A stretch of DNA of 64,000 bases from the NCBI RefSeq assembly GCF_057098645.1, contig NZ_CM169472.1. One strand, 5' to 3'. A model generated the notes under the pieces. The model ran no database searches, was not told where the DNA came from, and worked only from the letters and a program-made list of their open reading frames with translations. The first letter of the stretch is position 1. Every line of letters begins with the position of its first letter. Made by a program: the position numbers and the translations under genes. Below, in pieces: positions 5,208 to 55,095 of the stretch.

Positions 5208-5968
5208 CCGCGTAGCCCCCAAATCGTCAGTGCCATCACCACGCCGACGCAGGTAGCCAGTGTCAGCAGACTGGCGATCGCCCAGCGTGCCAGTCCGGTA
5301 TTGATGTGGCCTTTAAACATATCGGCGACGGCATTAATCAACGGAAAGCCCGGCACCAGCAGCAGAACGCTGGCGGCCATCGCAATGGTGGGGGTATTGC
5401 TGAAAGTGGGGAGTTGCAAAAGCAATCCGGAAATGGTGGTGGCGGCGAAAGCGGTAAGGCAAAAGTTGATCTGTGGATGAAGATGACGTTGTGCCAGCAG
5501 CTGGCGGATATACATCGCGGTCGTACTGGCAAAGAAGGTGATGACGGCACCATCCCAGCCACCGTTATTGAGTTTACAGAAACAGGCGCAAGAAAGGCCA
5601 ACCATTAAGGCTACCAGCCATCTTGGGTAACGTAATGGCTGAATTTGGCTAAATCGTTTCTCTACGCCTTTGTAATCCAGCAGATGGTGCTCCGCCAGAA
5701 TCACAATGTGCTGGACTTCAGTCACCACATGCATATTAATGCCGCGATCGTGATTTTTTCGTGTCGATGTCAGGCATTGCCCATCTTTAATAGTTGTCAG
5801 CACTATGGCGTTCGAAGAGATAGAACTTTCGACGCTGTCCATTCCCAGCGCCCGACCCAGTCGTGAGGAAAGCTCATCAACCAACGCGCTTTCCGCACCA
5901 TGTTGCAAAAGAAATAATCCACACTGGATACAAAGCCGTGTTACGGCTCGCTGTTGCTCAGTTTGCAT
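5198..5968 (-). CDS. yjjP: Inner membrane protein YjjP (ThrE-family transporter subunit)
   Basis: Starts [21 protein letters not shown]...; overlaps the yjjB start; the ORF-track start at 6031 is an upstream extension. Confidence 0.85.
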
Positions 5969-46518: not shown

Positions 46519-49500
46519 ATGGGTAAAGGCAGCAGTAAGGGGCATACCCCGCGCGAAGCGAAGGACAACCTGAAATCCACGCAGTTGCTGAGTGTGATTG
46601 ATGCCATCAGTGAAGGGCCGGTTGAAGGTCCGGTGGATGGATTAAAAAGCGTGCTGCTGAACAGTACGCCGGTGCTGGACAGTGAGGGGAATACCAACAT
46701 CGCCGGTGTCACGGTGGTGTTCCGGGCTGGTGAGCAGGAGCAGACTCCGCCGGAGGGATTTGAATCCTCCGGCTCCGAGACGGTGCTGGGTACGGAAGTG
46801 AAATACGACACGCCGATCACCCGCACCATCACGTCGGCAAACATCGACCGTCTGCGCTTTACCTTCGGTGTACAGGCACTGGTGGAAACCACCTCAAAGG
46901 GTGACAGGAATCCGTCGGAAGTCCGTCTGCTGGTTCAGATACAACGTAACGGTGGCTGGGTGACGGAAAAAGACATCACCATTAAGGGCAAAACCACCTC
47001 GCAGTATCTGGCCTCGGTGGTGGTGGGTAGCCTGCCGCCGCGCCCGTTTAATATCCGGATGCGCAGGATGACGCCGGACAGCACCACAGACCAGCTGCAG
47101 AACAAAACGCTCTGGTCGTCATACACCGAAATCATCGATGTGAAACAGTGCTACCCGAACACGGCACTGGTCGGCGTGCAGGTGGACTCGGAGCAGTTCG
47201 GCAGCCAGCAGGTGAGCCGTAATTATCATCTTCGCGGGCGCATTCTGCAGGTGCCGTCGAACTATAACCCGCAGACGCGGCAATACAGCGGTATCTGGGA
47301 CGGAACGTTAAAGCCAGCATACAGCAACAACATGGCCTGGTGTCTGTGGGATATGCTGACCCACCCGCGCTACGGCATGGGGAAACGTCTTGGTGCGGCG
47401 GATGTGGACAAATGGGCGCTGTATGTCATCGGCCAGTATTGCGACCAGTCGGTGCCGGACGGTTTTGGCGGCACGGAGTCGCGCATCACCTGTAACGCTT
47501 ACCTGACCACACAGCGTAAGGCGTGGGATGTTCTCAGTGATTTCTGCTCGGCGATGCGCTGTATGCCGGTATGGAACGGGCAGACGCTGACGTTCGTGCA
47601 GGACCGACCGTCGGATAAGGTGTGGACCTATAACCGCAGTAATGTGGTGATGCCGGATGATGGCGCGCCGTTCCGCTACAGTTTCAGCGCCCTGAAGGAC
47701 CGCCATAATGCCGTTGAGGTGAACTGGATTGACCCGAATAACGGCTGGGAGACGGCGACAGAGCTTGTGGAGGACACGCAGGCCATTCTCCGTTACGGTC
47801 GTAACGTCACGAAGATGGATGCCTTTGGCTGTACCAGCCGGGGGCAGGCACACCGCGCCGGGCTGTGGCTGATTAAAACGGAGCTGCTGGAAACGCAGAC
47901 TGTGGACTTCAGCGTGGGCGCAGAAGGGCTTCGCCATGTACCGGGCGATGTCATTGAAATCTGCGATGATGACTATGCGGGTATCAGCGTCGGCGGGCGC
48001 GTGCTTGCGGTAAACAGCCAGACCCGGACACTGACGCTCGACCGTGAAATCATGCTGCCATCCTCCGGAACCACGCTGATAAGCCTGGTTGACGGAAATG
48101 GCAATCCGGTCAGCGTGGAGGTCCAGTCCGTCACCGACGGCGTGAAGGTGAAAGTGAGCCGTGTTCCTGACGGCGTTGCCGAATACAGCGTGTGGGGGCT
48201 GAAGCTGCCGACGCTGCGCCAGCGCCTGTTCCGCTGCGTGAGTATCCGTGAGAACGATGACGGCACGTATGCCATCACCGCCGTGCAGCATGTACCGGAG
48301 AAAGAAGCCATCGTGGATAACGGGGCGCACTTTGACGGTGACCAGAGCGGCACGGTGAATGGTGTCACGCCGCCAGCAGTGCAGCACCTGACCGCCGAAG
48401 TCACTGCAGACAGCGGGGAATATCAGGTGCTGGCGCGATGGGACACACCGAAGGTGGTGAAGGGCGTGAGCTTCCTGCTCCGTCTGACCGTAACAGCGGA
48501 TGACGGCAGTGAGCGGCTGGTCAGCACGGCCCGGACGACGGAAACCACTTACCGCTTCACACAACTGGCGCTGGGGAACTACAGGCTGACAGTCCGGGCA
48601 GTAAATGCGTGGGGGCAGCAGGGCGATCCGGCGTCGGTATCGTTCCGGATTGCCGCACCGGCAGCGCCGTCGCGGATTGAGCTGACGCCGGGCTATTTTC
48701 AGATAACCGCCACGCCGCATCTTGCGGTTTATGATCCGACGGTACAGTTTGAGTTCTGGTTCTCGGAAAAGCGGATTGCGGATATCAGGCAGGTTGAAAC
48801 CACAGCACGCTATCTTGGCACGGCGCTGTACTGGATAGCCGCCAGTATCAATATCAAACCGGGCCATGATTATTACTTTTATATCCGCAGTGTGAACACC
48901 GTTGGCAAATCGGCATTCGTGGAGGCTGTTGGTCAGCCGAGTGATGATGCATCCGGTTATCTGGATTTTTTCAAAGGCGAGATAGGGAAAACCCATCTGG
49001 CTCAGGAGCTGTGGACGCAGATTGATAACGGTCAGCTTGCGCCTGACCTGGCTGAAATCAGGACGTCCATTACGGATGTCAGCAATGAAATCACGCAGAC
49101 CGTCAATAAGAAACTGGAAGACCAGAGTGCTGCAATTCAGCAGATACAGAAGGTTCAGGTTGATACAAATAATAACCTGAACAGCATGTGGGCTGTGAAG
49201 CTGCAGCAGATGCAGGACGGACGCCTTTATATCGCGGGTATTGGTGCCGGTATTGAGAATACCCCTGACGGCATGCAGAGTCAGGTGCTGCTGGCGGCGG
49301 ACAGGATTGCGATGGTTAATCCTGCGAATGGCAACACAAAACCGATGTTTGTTGGTCAGGGCGATCAGATATTCATGAACGACGTGTTCCTGAAACGCCT
49401 GACGGCTCCCACCATTACCAGCGGTGGAAATCCGCCGGCATTTTCCCTGACACCAGACGGAAAGCTGACCGCTAAAAATGCGGATATCAGCGGTAATGTG

Positions 49501-50001
49501 AATGCAAATTCAGGGACGCTCAACAATGTCACGATTAATGAAAACTGTCAGATTAAGGGGAAACTGTCAGCCAATCAGATTGAAGGCGATATTGTCAAAA
49601 CGGTCAGCAAGTCTTTCCCCTGCACGAACAGTTATGCCAGTGGCACCATCACGGTAAGAATCAGTGATGATCAGAAATTTGACCGGCAGGTCATGATACC
49701 GCCAGTGTTATTCCGCGGTGGTAAGCATGAGAATTTCAACAGTAATAACCAACAGTCATACTGGTATTCAACCTGCCGGTTAAGAGTGACCCGCAATGGT
49801 CAGGAGATTTTTAAGCAGTCCACGACGGATGCTCAGGGCGTATTTTCCTCAGTTATAGATATGCCTGCCGGACAGGGGACGCTGACACTGACATTCACCG
49901 TATCTTCATCAGGAGCGAATAACTGGACACCAACAACCAGTATCAGCGATCTGCTGGTTGTGGTGATGAAAAAATCCACAGCAGGTATCAGTATCAGCTG
50001 A
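46519..50001 (+). CDS. Central tail fiber / host specificity protein J (lambda gpJ-like)
   Basis: 1160-aa ORF following I; size, position and fibronectin-like repeats. Confidence 0.9.
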
Positions 50002-50018
50002 ATTTTATAACCCAGAAC

Positions 50019-50043
50019 GGGCGTCAGAAATGACGCCTTTTTT
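50019..50043 (+). terminator. Intrinsic terminator after J
   Basis: ggcgtcagaaatgacgcc followed by ttttttatt. Confidence 0.7.
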
Positions 50044-50067
50044 ATTGCAGAAAAGCGAGAGGTAATT

Positions 50068-50667
50068 ATGCGTAAACTTTATGCCGCCATTTTGTCCGCA
50101 GCCATTTGTCTGGCCGTATCCGGTGCGCCTGCATGGGCGTCTGAACATCAGTCCACGCTGAGCGCGGGGTATCTTCATGCCCGGACGAACGTTCCCGGCG
50201 GTGATGATCTGAACGGGATTAACGTGAAATACCGTTATGAGTTTACGGACACACTGGGGATGGTGACGTCGTTCAGCTATGCAGGAGACAAGAATCGCCA
50301 GATTACCCGTTACAGCGATACCCGCTGGCATGAAGATTCCATTCGTAACCGCTGGTTCAGCGTAATGGCGGGGCCGTCTGTGCGCGTGAATGAATGGTTC
50401 AGCGCGTATGCGATGGCGGGTGTGGCTTACAGCCGTGTGTCGACTTTCTCCGGGGATTATCTCCGCGTAACTGACAACAAGGGGAAAAAGCACGATGTGC
50501 TGACCGGAAGTGATGACGGTCGCCACAGCAACACGTCTCTGGCGTGGGGAGCTGGCGTGCAGTTTAACCCGACCGAATCCGTGGCCATTGATGTCGCTTA
50601 TGAAGGCTCCGGCAGTGGTGACTGGCGCACTGACGGTTTCATCGTGGGTGTCGGTTATAAATTCTGA
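50068..50667 (+). CDS. lom: Lom outer-membrane beta-barrel protein (Ail/Lom family moron)
   Basis: Signal peptide and beta-barrel ending ...GVGYKF; position after J as in lambda. Confidence 0.88.
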
Positions 50668-50695
50668 TTAGCCAGGTAACACAGTGTTATGACAG

Positions 50696-50720
50696 CCCGC
50701 CGGTTCAGGCGGGCTTTTTT
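50696..50720 (+). terminator. Intrinsic terminator after lom
   Basis: gcccgccggttcaggcgggc followed by tttttt. Confidence 0.7.
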
Positions 50721-50725
50721 GTGGG

Positions 50726-53700
50726 GTGAATATGGCAGTAAAGATTTCAGGTGTACTGAAAGACGGCACAGGAAAACCGGTACAGAACTGCACAATCCAG
50801 CTGAAAGCAAAACGTAACAGCACCACGGTGGTGGTGAACACGCTGGCCTCAGAAAATCCGGATGAAGCCGGGCGTTACAGCATGGACGTTGAGTACGGGC
50901 AGTACAGCGTTATTCTGTTGGTGGAGGGATTCCCGCCGTCACATGCCGGGACCATCACCGTGTATGAAGATTCCCGACCCGGTACGCTGAATGATTTTCT
51001 CGGTGCCATGACGGAGGATGATGCCCGTCCTGAGGCACTGCGCCGTTTTGAACTGATGGTGGAAGAGGTGGCGCGTAACGCGTCCGCGGTGGCACAGAAC
51101 ACGGCAGCCGCGAAGAAGTCAGCCAGCGATGCCGGCACATCAGCCCGTGAGGCGGCAACCCATGCGACTGATGCTGCAGGCTCAGCACGCGCAGCCAGCA
51201 CGTCAGCCGGACAGGCCGCGTCGTCGGCTCAGTCAGCGTCTTCCAGCGCAGGAACGGCATCAACAAAGGCCAGTGAAGCATCGAAAAGTGCTGCTGCTGC
51301 AGAGTCCTCAAAAAGCGCGGCGGCTACCAGTGCCGGTGCGGCGAAAACGTCAGAAACGAATGCTGCAGCGTCACAAAAATCTGCAGCCACTTCTGCATCC
51401 ACCGCGACCACGAAAGCGTCAGAAGCTGCCACCTCAGCCCGGGATGCAGCGGCCTCAAAAGAGGCAGCGAAATCATCAGAAACGAGCGCAGCCTCGAGCG
51501 CCAGTAATGCCGCTTCCTCGGCAACAGCGGCAGGAAATTCCGCGAAGGCGGCAAAAACGTCCGAGACGAACGCCAGGTCTTCTGAAACGGCAGCGGAACA
51601 GAGCGCCTCAGCTGCGGCAGACTCTGAGACAACAGCTGCATCATCGGCCCGTGAGGCGTCCATTAAGGCAGAGGAGGCAGCAGTCAGTGCCACCGCCGCC
51701 GGAAAATCGGCAGAAAGCGCCGCATCATCCGCTTCAACAGCCACAACGAAGGCTGGCGAAGCCACTGAACAGGCCAGCGCAGCAGCGAGGTCTGCTTCCG
51801 CAGCGAAGACATCCGAAACGAACGCGAAAGCGTCGGAAACCAGCGCAGAATCCTCAAAAACGGCTGCCGCATCGTCCGCCAGTTCGGCGGCGTCATCGGC
51901 ATCATCGGCGTCTGCTTCAAAAGATGAGGCGACCAGACAGGCGTCAGCAGCGAGGGGCAGCGCCACGACGGCATCCACGAAGGCGACAGAGGCTGCTGGC
52001 AGTGCGGCAGCGGCAGCACAGAGCAAAAGTACGGCAGAATCCGCAGCAACGCGCGCCGAGACAGCAGCAAAACGGGCAGAGGATATTGCATCCGCCGTGG
52101 CGCTTGAGGATGCGAGCACGACGAAAAAGGGGATAGTACAGCTCAGCAGTGCGACCAACAGCACTTCCGAGTCACTGGCGGCAACGCCAAAAGCCGTTAA
52201 GGCCGCGTATGACCTGGCTAACGGGAAATACACCGCACAGGATGCAACGACAGCACAGAAAGGGATAATCCAGCTAAGCAGCGCGACCAACAGCACGTCT
52301 GAAACGCTGGCGGCAACGCCAAAGGCAGTAAAAGCAGCCAATGACAATGCTGAGAAACGTCTGCAGAAAGATCAGAACGGTGCGGATATCCCTGGCAAAG
52401 ACACCTTTACGAAAAATATTGGTGCCTGCCGTGCCTTCGGTGGGTCAGTAAGCACAACAACAGGAAACTGGACGACTGCACAGTTTATCGAGTGGCTGGA
52501 TTCTCAGGGAGCATTTAACCATCCATACTGGATGTGCAAGGGTTCCTGGTCTTATGGCAATAATAAAATCATTACTGATACTGGCTGCGGTAATATTCAT
52601 CTCGCCGGAGCTGTCATTGAAGTAATGGGGATAAAGTCAGCGATGACGATCCGCATTACCACACCGACCACCTCCACTGGTGGTGGAACAACTAACGCCC
52701 AGTTTACCTATATTAATCACGGAACAGATTATTCACCTGGCTGGCGAAGGGACTATAACTCCAGAAATAAGCCAACGGCATCAGAGATCGGGGCGTTACC
52801 GTCAGGTGGAACAGCAGTATCATCAGTTAATCTGTCTTCAAAAGGTCGGGTAACCGCGCTGACAGACAATACGCAGGGGGCAACAGGTCTTGAGTTATAC
52901 GAGGTGTATAACAACGGATATCCAACAGCGTATGGAAATATCATTCACCTGAAAGGGATGACAGCCGTTGGCGAAGGTGAGTTACTCATCGGCTGGAGTG
53001 GTACAAGCGGTGCTCATGCTCCGGCATTTATTCGTTCACGACGGGATACGACCGACGCAAACTGGTCGCCGTGGGCGCAGCTTTACACCTCGGCTCATCC
53101 TCCTGCAGAGTTTTATCCAGTCGGTGCACCAATCCCGTGGCCATCAGATACCGTTCCGTCTGGTTATGCCCTGATGCAGGGGCAGACTTTTGACAAATCT
53201 GCTTACCCGAAACTTGCAGCCGCTTATCCGTCAGGCGTGATCCCTGATATGCGTGGCTGGACGATTAAGGGCAAGCCCGCCAGTGATCGAGCCGTATTGT
53301 CTCAGGAACAGGACGGCATTAAATCACACACCCACAGCGCCAGCGTATCCAGTACGGATTTGGGGACGAAAACCACATCGTCGTTTGATTACGGCACTAA
53401 ATCCACGAATAACACTGGTGCGCATACCCATAGTGTTAGCGGTACGGCTGCTTCAGCCGGTGCACATACCCATTCGATGACATTTGTTTCAGGTGGTTCC
53501 AGTGGTGCTCCGGGAAGTGGATCACCTGATTACTCTAAATACAGTGTTAACACTTCTTCTGCAGGCGCTCATACGCACTCTGTATCGGGTACTGCTGCAA
53601 GCGCAGGTGCACACGCACATACTGTCGGTATTGGTGCTCATACGCACTCCGTTGCGATTGGTTCACATGGACATACCATCACCGTTAACGCTGCTGGTAA

Positions 53701-53755
53701 CGCGGAAAACACCGTCAAAAACATCGCATTTAACTATATTGTGAGGCTTGCATAA
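50726..53755 (+). CDS. Side tail fiber protein (Stf-like) with a long Ala/Ser/Thr-rich repeat region and C-terminal GAHTHS repeats
   Basis: 1009 aa; residues ~120-470 are low-complexity repeats; C-terminal [20 protein letters not shown] tail-fibre repeat motifs. Confidence 0.85.
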
Positions 53756-54336
53756 TGGCATTCAGAATGAGTGAACAACCACGGACCATAAAAATTTATA
53801 ATCTGCTGGCCGGAACTAATGAATTTATTGGTGAAGGTGACGCATATATTCCGCCTCATACAGGTCTGCCTGTAAACAGTACCTATATTGCACCGCCAGA
53901 TATTCCGGCTGGTTTCGTGGCTGTTTTCAACAGTGATGAGTCATCGTGGCATCTCGTTGAAGATCATCGGGGTAAAACGGTTTATGACGTGGCTTCCGGC
54001 GACGCGTTATTTATTTCTGAACTCGGTCCGTTACCGGAAAATGTTACCTGGTTATCGCCGGAAGGGGAGTTTCAGAAGTGGAACGGCACAGCCTGGTTGA
54101 AGGATACGGAAGCAGAAAAACTGTTCCGGATCCGGGAGGCGGAAGAAACAAAAAACAACCTGATGCAGGTAGCCAGTGAGCATATTGCGCCGCTTCAGGA
54201 TGCTGCAGATCTGGAAATTGCAACGGAGGAAGAAATCTCGTTGCTGGAAGCATGGAAAAAGTATCGGGTATTGCTGAACCGTGTTGATACATCAACTGCA
54301 CCTGATATTGAGTGGCCAGCAGCACCTGTAGGATAA
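53755..54336 (+). CDS. tfa: Tail fiber assembly protein (Tfa)
   Basis: 193 aa following and coupled to stf; C-terminal ...[23 protein letters not shown]... Confidence 0.85.
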
Positions 54337-54434
54337 AACAAAAACTTTATATAGAGTGCTCTTTTTACAATGTCAGATAAATGCTGGCCGAAATGTAATT
54401 CATTAGAAGTAAAAAACAGAATGGTTTGAGGGTG

Positions 54435-54480
54435 TGTCATCCCTTTATTATTAATAGTGAAAGGGATGACATTCTTTTTT
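54435..54480 (+). terminator. Strong intrinsic terminator after the tail fiber operon
   Basis: tgtcatccctttattattaatagtgaaagggatgaca followed by ttctttttt. Confidence 0.75.
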
Positions 54481-54676
54481 AAGGAGTGTCTTTTTTATCG
54501 GAATATAAGTTGAGATAATGTTTAACTCGATTATAAAAATGTTTTTTCTTATCTCTTGGAATGCTTACTATTATATGCATTATGGGGCTTGTGTTTGCCG
54601 ATAATTTAGCTGATGCATACATTGAAGCAAGGAATTCAATATCAGTATTGTCAAAATTAAAACTTTCTCCATCCAT
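54479..54676 (-). CDS. Hypothetical small ORF in an AT-rich insert
   Basis: 65-aa ORF in very AT-rich DNA; no motif; may be non-coding. Confidence 0.25.
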   Translation of the reverse strand: MDGESFNFDNTDIEFLASMYASAKLSANTSPIMHIIVSIPRDKKKHFYNRVKHYLNLYSDKKDTP

Positions 54677-54996
54677 TTCAATTCCTTATGTGTTTGGCTC
54701 GGTATACTGTATCCCATGAGATTTTACGTAAATTGTCATATCTAATATTGCAATTATAATTGTAGCTAATTATTTTAAATTAGGTGAAAGTTTATTGCGA
54801 ATGATTAACTCGGAAAAAAAGATTTCTCACGGTTAGTAAGTATATTAGGTCAGTATTCAGATATGAGTAGTGTTAACGACTAAATTTGCAATCACATATA
54901 GATTTTTGTTCTAATAAAGATGTTTTATTTGGCGATTCGTCAAGCATCTCCACTTAAGCAATCGTATATATTAAGAGTGCAAAAGAGAAGGGACAA

Positions 54997-55095
54997 CGTT
55001 GCTCGCACTCTGGAATAAATATCGGGTATTGTTAAAGTGTGGTGATACATAATTGTACGGGATATTGAGTGGCCTGAAGTCCCAGTCATTGAGTA
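54997..55095 (+). pseudogene. Remnant of a tail fiber assembly gene 3' end
   Basis: ...ctggaataaatatcgggtattgttaaagtgtggtgatacat... is ~70% identical to the tfa 3' end at 54255..54336; reading frame broken. Confidence 0.6.

Follow-up and report, generated by a model that had tools for sequence, protein, structure and literature searches.

Results

The stf locus

The window, that is, the whole stretch of 64,000 nucleotides that we analysed (contig NZ_CM169472.1 of assembly GCF_057098645.1), carries, within an E. coli prophage, a side tail fibre gene in the order J - lom - stf - tfa (Table 1). The longest open reading frame (ORF) listed for Stf starts at a GTG and covers 50726..53755 on the plus strand (1009 aa), and the ATG at 50732, from which the protein reads MAVKISG as in lambda, is the start also picked by PGAP. 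At its N-terminus the protein matches the phage_tail_N family (PF08400; residues 3-136, E 1.4e-71 in Pfam) and the collar in PDB 9e7m (chain 9e7m_Ta; residues 3-96, E 1.3e-51). Residues 541-697 match PDB 8ju3 and resemble the tail fibre S of Mu, and residues 796-1009 match PDB 2xgf (E 5e-86), a tip of the T4 gp37 type. Stf also carries a Pfam Collar domain and two Phage_fiber_2 (Pf2) repeats, which have a period of 132 nt (44 aa) and appear as two 107-nt copies with 77% identity. With the PfN domain, the genomic position and the gp37-type tip all present, Stf belongs to the lambda-type side tail fibres. In Ur-lambda, gpStf is laid out as a collar on gpV/gpM (given as residues 1-94 and as 1-91), a linker, a proximal coiled coil (102-393) and a hinge; it forms trimers, with four fibres per virion, and binds an outer-membrane receptor (PMC12617516).

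Table 1. Features of the stf locus, in window coordinates.
Feature	Coordinates	Strand	Details
stf, side tail fibre gene	50732..53755	+	1007 aa from ATG 50732
N-terminal collar (PfN) domain and linker, tail attachment of the fibre	50732..51061	+	PF08400, PDB 9e7m
Predicted coiled-coil rod, ~50 heptads without a break; Ala/Glu/Lys at a, Ala at d, Ser at g	51062..52111	+	
Block-boundary patch of mosaic alleles	51632..51691	+	60 nt, stf nt 901-960
15-heptad stretch without counterpart in lambda Stf	51641..51955	+	315 nt, 105 aa
Two Pf2 (Phage_fiber_2) repeats, rod end/hinge region	52107..52345	+	PF03406, two stretches
tfa, tail fibre assembly chaperone	53755..54336	+	Caudo_TAP, E 2.9e-43
+1-frame ORF, Arg/Pro/Gln-rich by-product	51129..52136	+	335 aa
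Antisense ORF, wobble-aligned frame, by-product	51229..52347	-	372 aa, TTG start
Two shorter antisense ORFs, another frame	51324..51644, 51684..52091	-	ORF listing

An alanine-cored heptad rod

A preliminary description of this DNA had pointed to an Ala/Ser/Thr-rich repeat region in the side tail fibre, and this holds: Stf contains a segment that consists of these three residues to 71.5%. Ala makes up 37% of residues 120-470, Ser 23% and Thr 12%; in the remainder of Stf the three together reach about 36%. Between residues 113 and 462 there are a single Leu, two Ile, one His, eight Gln and no Tyr, and just seven codons with T at position 2; the GC content of the rod DNA is 0.59-0.64, versus 0.46-0.55 in the flanks.

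The repeats exceed chance by far, and their periodicity is that of a coiled coil. For an alanine indicator the Fourier power at period 3.5 is 45, and at period 7.0 it is 17 (the 95th percentile of shuffles is about 8), and residue identity is 0.36-0.40 at all multiples of seven versus 0.21 expected. The heptad register does not change across residues 113-462, at one core position 47 out of 47 consecutive heptads carry Ala, and this chain of core alanines is identical in eight alleles with 87-96% DNA identity. No super-repeat above the heptad was found at lags of 7k residues up to 273, where the identity profile is flat at about 0.4; similar rod segments do occur at lags of 70, 84, 112, 126, 154 and 238 aa, and have the look of duplications that are old and have since diverged. 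The preliminary description had missed the strict heptad coiled coil.

An AlphaFold2 (AF2) model of the rod as a monomer is all helix (model residues 8-181 and 191-382; mean pLDDT 69). The modelled chain bends back as a hairpin, at moderate confidence. The model thus supports helix only, and we treat the break near model residues 182-190 as an artefact of single-chain folding, not as a hinge.

The repeat is in the protein, not in the DNA

At the DNA level the picture is different. Tandem Repeats Finder returned only two trivial 22-nt rows on the rod and no tandem array of high identity; direct repeats that match exactly reach 12 nt at most, where codon shuffles average 12.2; and internal copies are short (15-29 nt, 65-80% identity), many of them spaced by multiples of 21 nt. 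The periodicity of the rod thus resides in the protein and not in the DNA. The repeats had been called degenerate, which holds for the protein, where they are about 50 unbroken heptads. The further suggestion of repetitive DNA that is prone to recombination is right only in part: as worded it is not supported, the DNA not being repetitive enough to favour slippage or intragenic recombination.

Alternative reading frames across the rod

Two long ORFs that overlap the rod, one in the +1 frame and one antisense, had also been named, and both exist exactly where they had been placed (Table 1). Across the 1050 nt of the rod, two frames are open, with 0 and 1 stops, while two others contain 12 and 23. 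Inside the coil the +1 frame has no stop, and to create one takes a stf codon whose second base is T, of which the coil has only seven; on the opposite strand, the ends of the ORF are set by a Gln or His codon that follows a codon ending in T, which creates a stop. Nearly all codons of the rod are for Ala, Ser, Thr, Glu or Lys; Tyr is absent, and codons whose second base is T are almost absent. Of the five alternative frames, two are therefore unable to gain stops, and the result is long ORFs rather than genes.

Null models agree. Under synonymous recoding the median open length is 350 codons in the +1 frame, versus 359 observed, and 331 codons in the antisense frame, versus 380 observed (P = 0.29). 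Three null models reproduce the observed open lengths (P = 0.16-0.44), the probability of an antisense run of at least 380 codons being 0.21-0.30 over the three, and the 152 codons observed in the shorter antisense frame fall within the 5-95% null range of 72-164. Selection is visible in the stf frame, with 37, 26 and 153 variable columns at codon positions 1, 2 and 3. The +1 ORF is disrupted in one allele (L007), its variation lies mostly on its own second codon position, and it has no family match in Pfam or PHROG. When the alternative-frame ORFs were searched for promoters, Shine-Dalgarno sequences and family membership, the match of the antisense ORF to phrog_560 was the sole one; a Pfam match to S1CSD-TOTE-2 (18 bits versus a cut-off of 27) was dismissed as low-complexity. 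Both named ORFs are by-products of the amino-acid composition of the rod, as had been proposed: recoding nulls match, the start codons vary between alleles, and selection on the antisense frame was not detected.

Rod length and mosaic alleles

For rod length we sampled E. coli matches spread over the identity range. All 32 full-coverage matches align as a single ungapped piece of 1050 nt, with identity down to 87.6%, and no copy-number polymorphism among close relatives was found in these 32 or in the eight alleles of 87-96% identity. Over the wider family, representatives have 10-47 heptads; 20 of 22 have a common register, and in the remaining two the signal falls on the other core position within that heptad frame. 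The proposal that such a tract could vary fibre length is therefore right for the family, whose members differ by whole heptads, and wrong for close relatives, in which length is fixed.

The alignment with lambda orf-401 shows one clean in-frame gap of 105 aa relative to the rod. Among E. coli genomes, 3690 carry the corresponding 15-heptad stretch, at 5503 places in all; the PfN domain is present in 4838 of the 5426 genomes, with 15,360 copies. Near the start of this stretch, a 60-nt patch (Table 1) differs at 18-19 positions from seven of the eight alleles, which are otherwise 87-96% identical. The patch marks a block boundary, the alleles being mosaics of blocks.

Discussion

Our results make it very likely that the Ala/Ser/Thr-rich segment of Stf is the proximal coiled coil (PCoil) of a lambda-type side tail fibre. 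Rods of this type are already described in the literature, and the one studied here is nothing new in kind. An all-alanine core is unusual for coiled coils, in which Leu and Ile are the usual core residues. A comparable core is that of alanine zippers such as the one in Lpp-56 (Braun's lipoprotein), a parallel three-stranded coil with Ala at the a and d core positions; in Lpp, however, a short Ala stretch is flanked by a conventional hydrophobic core, whereas the rod of Stf is Ala-cored over all of its roughly 50 heptads. We know of no atomic structure of a full rod. These heptads, which place Ala in the two core positions and Ser in g, would allow three Stf chains to wind together, and the resulting long alpha-helical coiled coil would hold the receptor-binding distal half of the fibre away from the tail collar. 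The three-stranded state is taken over by analogy from work on homologues, and ~350 residues at 0.148 nm per residue give a predicted length of ~52 nm. Indeed, PCoil has been described as Ala/Ser-rich, with A-x-x-A/S-x-x-S heptads and lengths that differ by multiples of seven, and fragments of it are trimeric by SEC-MALLS, as shown for EPclA, and alpha-helical by CD, with a cooperative and reversible melt (Ghosh et al., 2012; PMC3368898). In 2025 a trimeric bundle was seen by cryo-EM in Ur-lambda, its proximal part being resolved and the rest modelled with AlphaFold3 (PMC12617516).

Comparison with individual fibres shows what is shared and what differs. Lambda Stf shares the J-lom-stf-tfa position, the heptad register and the Pf2 motif that closes the rod, and by inspection of the alignment its collar and rod are alike in about nine residues out of ten over the aligned length. 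Its rod is shorter by exactly 15 heptads (105 aa, ~15.6 nm calculated), only one Pf2 repeat aligns in it against two here, and the Mu S-like middle part (PDB 8ju3) that precedes the gp37-like tip differs from lambda Stf. The PCoil of EPclA/B, collagen-like tail-fibre proteins of E. coli O157:H7 prophages, likewise follows PfN directly, is Ala/Ser-rich and nearly without Leu or Ile, has multiple-of-seven lengths and shows the A-x-x-A/S-x-x-S pattern that we also find in the rod; yet it spans only ~110 residues (~16 nm) before a collagen triple helix begins, unlike the rod here, with its ~350 residues followed by Pf2 repeats and a gp37-like tip, and its periodicity was termed 'loose' (PMC3368898), while here it is strict at one core position. 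StfR of the K-12 Rac prophage has the same 1050-nt rod: copies from K-12-derived strains align ungapped with 93.6-93.7% identity, and over residues 127-449 the Ala chain is identical. The distal part of StfR differs, the protein totalling 1120 aa and diverging after the first Pf2 repeat.

Other explanations of the region have to be weighed against this one. The segment could be a disordered low-complexity linker or a beta-structured shaft rather than a coiled coil, as its low-complexity composition without a Leu/Ile core and the moderate confidence of the AF2 model would allow. But neither would be expected to show an exact 3.5/7.0 periodicity in constant phase over 350 residues or core alanines that are invariant across alleles, nor is it compatible with an all-helix model, with the trimeric, helical state of homologous PCoil fragments (PMC3368898) or with the trimeric bundle of Ur-lambda (PMC12617516), and we regard it as the least probable of the readings discussed, with next to no chance of being correct. 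The coiled-coil rod might, on the other hand, be a hypermutable repeat locus in which slippage or unequal crossing-over often alters fibre length within a lineage. Motifs do recur internally (AAKTSETNA occurs three times), heptad number varies among family members, and ~36% (5503/15,360) of the E. coli PfN-type fibre genes have the 15-heptad stretch. However, with no tandem array, exact repeats no longer than those of codon shuffles, internal copies that are diverged as well as short, and no higher-order period above 7 aa, the sequence offers slippage no substrate beyond chance, and the relatives that it should have altered are ungapped and equal in length in 32 cases out of 32 and in all eight alleles. 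We therefore reject it as very unlikely. The mosaic alleles and the whole-heptad steps in length argue instead for exchange between prophages: the length classes of the rod would have arisen through in-register exchange between their fibre genes.

The antisense ORF has known counterparts. Relative to stf, its frame is that of lambda orf206b, which has been annotated since the original lambda record and appears as lambdap90 in PMC10695390; it matches phrog_560 with E 1e-115, and in none of the nine alleles examined is its open run shorter than 245 codons. That it is a real overlapping gene opposite the rod is nevertheless highly improbable. Its open length is what the amino-acid sequence of Stf predicts, and it follows rod length, from 206 aa in lambda (the phrog_560 profile has 249 positions) to 372 aa here. 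Its upstream end shifts among stf nt 1286, 1475, 1538 and 1640, its starts are TTG or GTG at differing codons, its length across alleles ranges from 245 to 372 aa, and its open run has no ATG close to the 5' end; where there is an ATG at all, it comes at least 200 codons in. No Shine-Dalgarno sequence or promoter-like site was found for it, PGAP does not call it, and a CRISPRi knockdown in lambda scored orf206b as non-essential (PMC10695390). The wobble positions of this frame coincide with those of stf, which means that dN/dS cannot separate the two strands; we therefore used transversions at fourfold sites of stf, and in this test, of low power with its 132 sites, amino-acid-changing transversions were not depleted, at 11/49 sites versus 15/83 (odds ratio 1.3, P = 0.65). 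We give equally little credence to the bolder idea that the antisense frame is a real gene with its conservation hidden at the wobble positions or, in a milder form, that a rod length of exactly 50 heptads, constant over thousands of E. coli prophages with differing receptor-binding tips, would be a selected molecular ruler for reach.

The coiled-coil rod has some practical consequences. A rod quantised in heptads, with conserved in-register DNA, explains why chimeric Stf fibres can be made through exchange of their distal parts at the rod or Pf2 junction; this helps host-range engineering, although the principle is not new. The main value lies in annotation, where the lesson is that long ORFs opposite to or out of frame with Ala/Ser-rich coiled-coil genes should not be called. 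At least one artefact of this kind, the probably spurious family of orf206b and phrog_560, has already found its way into phage databases, where its function is listed as unknown.

A known coiled-coil rod in strict heptad phase

The Ala/Ser/Thr-rich rod of the side tail fibre protein Stf is a known domain: lambda-type side tail fibres have a coiled-coil rod that is well described, and the one here has the common long form of 50 heptads. Ghosh et al. (2012) gave the name "PCoil" to the Ala/Ser-rich stretch that, in tail-fibre proteins of E. coli prophages, follows the N-terminal collar domain (PfN). [quoted passage not shown] In the 2025 Ur-lambda structure, gpStf runs from a collar (residues 1-91) through a linker (92-101), a proximal coiled coil (102-393) and a hinge to a distal part, and a trimeric bundle was resolved adjoining the collar (PMC12617516).

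The composition given in the preliminary description holds: Ala makes up 37% of residues 120-470, Ser 23% and Thr 12%, and the DNA is GC-rich (0.59-0.64), with A strongly in excess of T on the coding strand. The repeats, described there as degenerate "AAKTSETNA" units, do exist, but they are more regular than that. At period 3.5 the Fourier power of Ala is 45, and at 7.0 it is 17 (95th percentile of shuffles, about 8), and residue identity reaches 0.36-0.40 at every multiple of seven, other lags staying at or below the expectation of 0.21. When residues 113-462 are set out seven to a row, they form about 50 heptads of constant phase without a stutter. In one column Ala fills 47 of the 49 rows and Val the other two; a second has Ala in 35 and otherwise mainly Glu or Lys, and a third has Ser in 36. 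The coiled-coil register places Ala at a and d and Ser at g, the d-position Ala running unbroken through 47 consecutive heptads. AF2 models residues 93-475, as a monomer, entirely as helix (model residues 8-181 and 191-382, mean pLDDT 69), and the mid-model fold-back reflects a single chain modelled without its partners. With the textbook rise of 0.148 nm per residue, the 350-residue rod would measure about 52 nm.

A mosaic fibre in a lambdoid prophage

The window is an E. coli prophage of the lambdoid type. Its rod is 100% identical over 1050 nt to the chromosome of strain YPE10, where the prophage carries terminase through tail genes and has its end beside prfC. The genes follow in the order J, lom, stf, tfa.

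Features of the stf region (window positions)
Feature	Position	Strand	Content
J	46519-50001		
ORF antisense to lom	50005-50526	-	173 aa
lom	50068-50667		Pfam Ail_Lom
Hairpin	50694-50725		8 pairs (7 G-C), then TTTTTGT
stf	50726/50732-53755	+	PF08400, Phage_fiber_2 x2, Collar
Rod	51062-52111	+	residues 113-462
+1-frame ORF	51129-52136	+	335 aa
Antisense ORF	51229-52347	-	372 aa
Rod part homologous to pYLMB53a fibre	51285-52111		43-heptad rod in that fibre
Divergent patch	51632-51691		stf nt 901-960
Stretch absent from lambda	51641-51955		105 residues, 15 heptads
Phage_fiber_2 pair	52107-52345		two 107-nt copies
Mu-type middle	52346-52816		residues 541-697
His-rich repeats	53417-53652		GGTGCNCATACNCAT
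tfa	53755-54336		Caudo_TAP
AT-rich stretch	54300-55050		GC 0.29-0.33

The N-terminus of Stf is PF08400, the prophage tail-fibre N-terminal domain (E 1.4e-71), and residues 3-96 match a 94-residue tail fibre chain in PDB 9e7m, which we take to be the Ur-lambda collar because its length and copy number fit the published description (PMC12617516). For the middle, the sequence match is to structure 8ju3 of phage Mu tail fibre S/S' (290 bits), and for residues 796-1009 it is to the T4 gp37 tip (PDB 2xgf), so that the fibre is a mosaic of lambda-type collar and rod, Mu-type middle and gp37-type tip. Short direct repeats near the end of the gene encode the GAHTHS His-rich repeats of that tip. The only real DNA-level duplication near the rod is the pair of Phage_fiber_2 repeats just after it (77% identity, 132 nt apart), of which one copy only aligns in lambda; their number therefore varies too.

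The stf ORF call opens at GTG 50726 (MNMAVKISG), but the true start is probably ATG 50732, two codons later: lambda, PGAP and all homologues examined start at the ATG, with MAVKISG or, in three alleles, MTVKISG. Lambda residue numbers equal those counted from the GTG minus 2. Two near-identical homologues (P0056 and P0096) are misnamed in public records as 'PPE-repeat protein' and 'short-chain fatty acid transporter', probably through the low-complexity rod or fused gene calls.

Several neighbouring features deserve mention. The strong terminator-like hairpin between lom and stf suggests that lom can be transcribed alone and that stf is read only under late antitermination. The ORF opposite lom is probably another non-coding overlap. 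Downstream of tfa, the AT-rich stretch has a base composition that would be typical of a cargo or moron gene; the identical YPE10 record has a small hypothetical gene there and a DinI-like gene just beyond, before the prophage ends at prfC.

Rod length moves in heptads and is fixed in the long class

Comparing repeat number among related prophages, as the preliminary description proposed, gives whole-heptad steps in the family and a fixed length in the long class. Collar and rod of lambda orf-401 are closely similar to those of Stf, apart from one gap, clean and exactly 105 residues long. A further eight alleles, taken from E. coli chromosomes and one phage and including K-12 StfR, O157:H7 and O104:H4, share 87-96% DNA identity and differ in their distal domains (the seven complete genes measure 972-1134 aa overall; L006, a truncated pseudogene, is left out of this range). 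The rod is free of indels in all eight, and seven keep 47/47 core Ala, the eighth (L008) having 44 over the same 47 heptads.

The rod segment is present in 4119 of 5426 complete E. coli genomes, and 3592 have one place covering at least 80% of it; in a spread sample of matches, all 32 full-coverage rows were one ungapped 1050-nt piece. The PfN-coding segment is far commoner than the rod, with 15,360 places (up to 14 per genome) against 5503 for the 15-heptad stretch, so most PfN fibres have shorter or different rods. Representatives of the wider family have rods of 10 to 47 heptads, all in one heptad frame relative to the collar; length is therefore variable but quantised, and the class seen in the window has the longest rod found, of invariant length. 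Separately, the E. coli plasmid pYLMB53a (about 112 kb, probably a phage-plasmid) encodes, after a TipJ gene, a tail fibre that exceeds 1400 aa and has a homologous 43-heptad Ala rod. This rod looks to sit behind a different N-terminus, since the rod segment matched only in part, and the module thus seems to be shared beyond lambda-type PfN fibres.

Probable exchange between alleles

The preliminary description saw the DNA as repetitive and recombination-prone. That view is right only in part. Within the gene it does not hold: Tandem Repeats Finder returns only two trivial 22-nt rows, the longest exact repeat is 12 nt (codon-shuffle mean 12.2), and no period above seven residues was found. Internal copies are 15-29 nt long at 65-80% identity, many of them spaced by multiples of 21 nt. 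Between alleles, on the other hand, mismatches come in blocks. For about 400 nt, L008 and L012 match the window base for base, after which their identity falls to about 94%; L007 comes close to full identity only at stf nt 841 and beyond. Only L007 shares a 60-nt patch in which the other seven alleles, close elsewhere, differ at 18-19 positions; this patch encodes the two Ile- and Val-containing heptads and lies at the left edge of the stretch absent from lambda. To judge from these alignments, the blocks are probably the signature of homologous exchange between fibre genes of co-resident or co-infecting prophages, which about 1 kb of DNA, 88-96% identical and invariably in register, would favour.

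Overlapping ORFs as by-products of composition

Both long overlapping ORFs were recovered with exactly the ends given in the preliminary description, and their reading as by-products of composition is supported: recoding nulls reproduce their lengths and their starts are not conserved. Within the 1050 nt, the +1 frame contains no stop and the wobble-aligned antisense frame a single one; two of the other frames have 12 and 23. By the genetic code, a +1 stop can arise only from the sense codons for Phe, Leu, Ile, Met or Val, those with T at position 2, and a stop in that antisense frame requires a Tyr codon, or a His or Gln codon after one ending in T. Stops are few because the rod nearly lacks such codons (no Tyr, one His, eight Gln and seven residues with T at position 2, versus 24, 21, 18 and 125 in the other 659 residues). 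The observed open runs are 359 codons in the +1 frame and 380 in the antisense frame; with Stf synonymously recoded or its codons shuffled, the medians were 307-350 (P = 0.16-0.44) and 302-331 (P = 0.21-0.30), respectively.

Conservation as independent genes finds no support among nine alleles. Variable columns number 37, 26 and 153 at stf codon positions 1, 2 and 3, so that selection acts on the stf frame; most changes land on position 2 of the +1 ORF, which is cut to 196 codons in one allele. The upstream end of the antisense ORF falls at four different places (245-372 aa); its starts are TTG or GTG, the open run lacks an ATG near its 5' end, and neither a Shine-Dalgarno nor a promoter-like site was found for the overlapping ORFs. 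As wobble positions coincide, dN/dS cannot separate stf from the antisense frame; we therefore compared transversions at stf fourfold-degenerate sites, and those that would change the antisense amino acid were no rarer than those that would leave it unchanged (11/49 versus 15/83, odds ratio 1.3, P=0.65).

The same antisense ORF is orf206b of the original lambda record, kept in RefSeq as lambdap90 and scored non-essential by CRISPRi. The window ORF matches phrog_560 (E 1e-115), and the simplest view is that this family consists of the Stf rod translated in mirror image. The feature itself is already known; the useful outcomes are an annotation warning on orf206b and phrog_560, and the confirmation that rod length in this family changes by whole heptads only.
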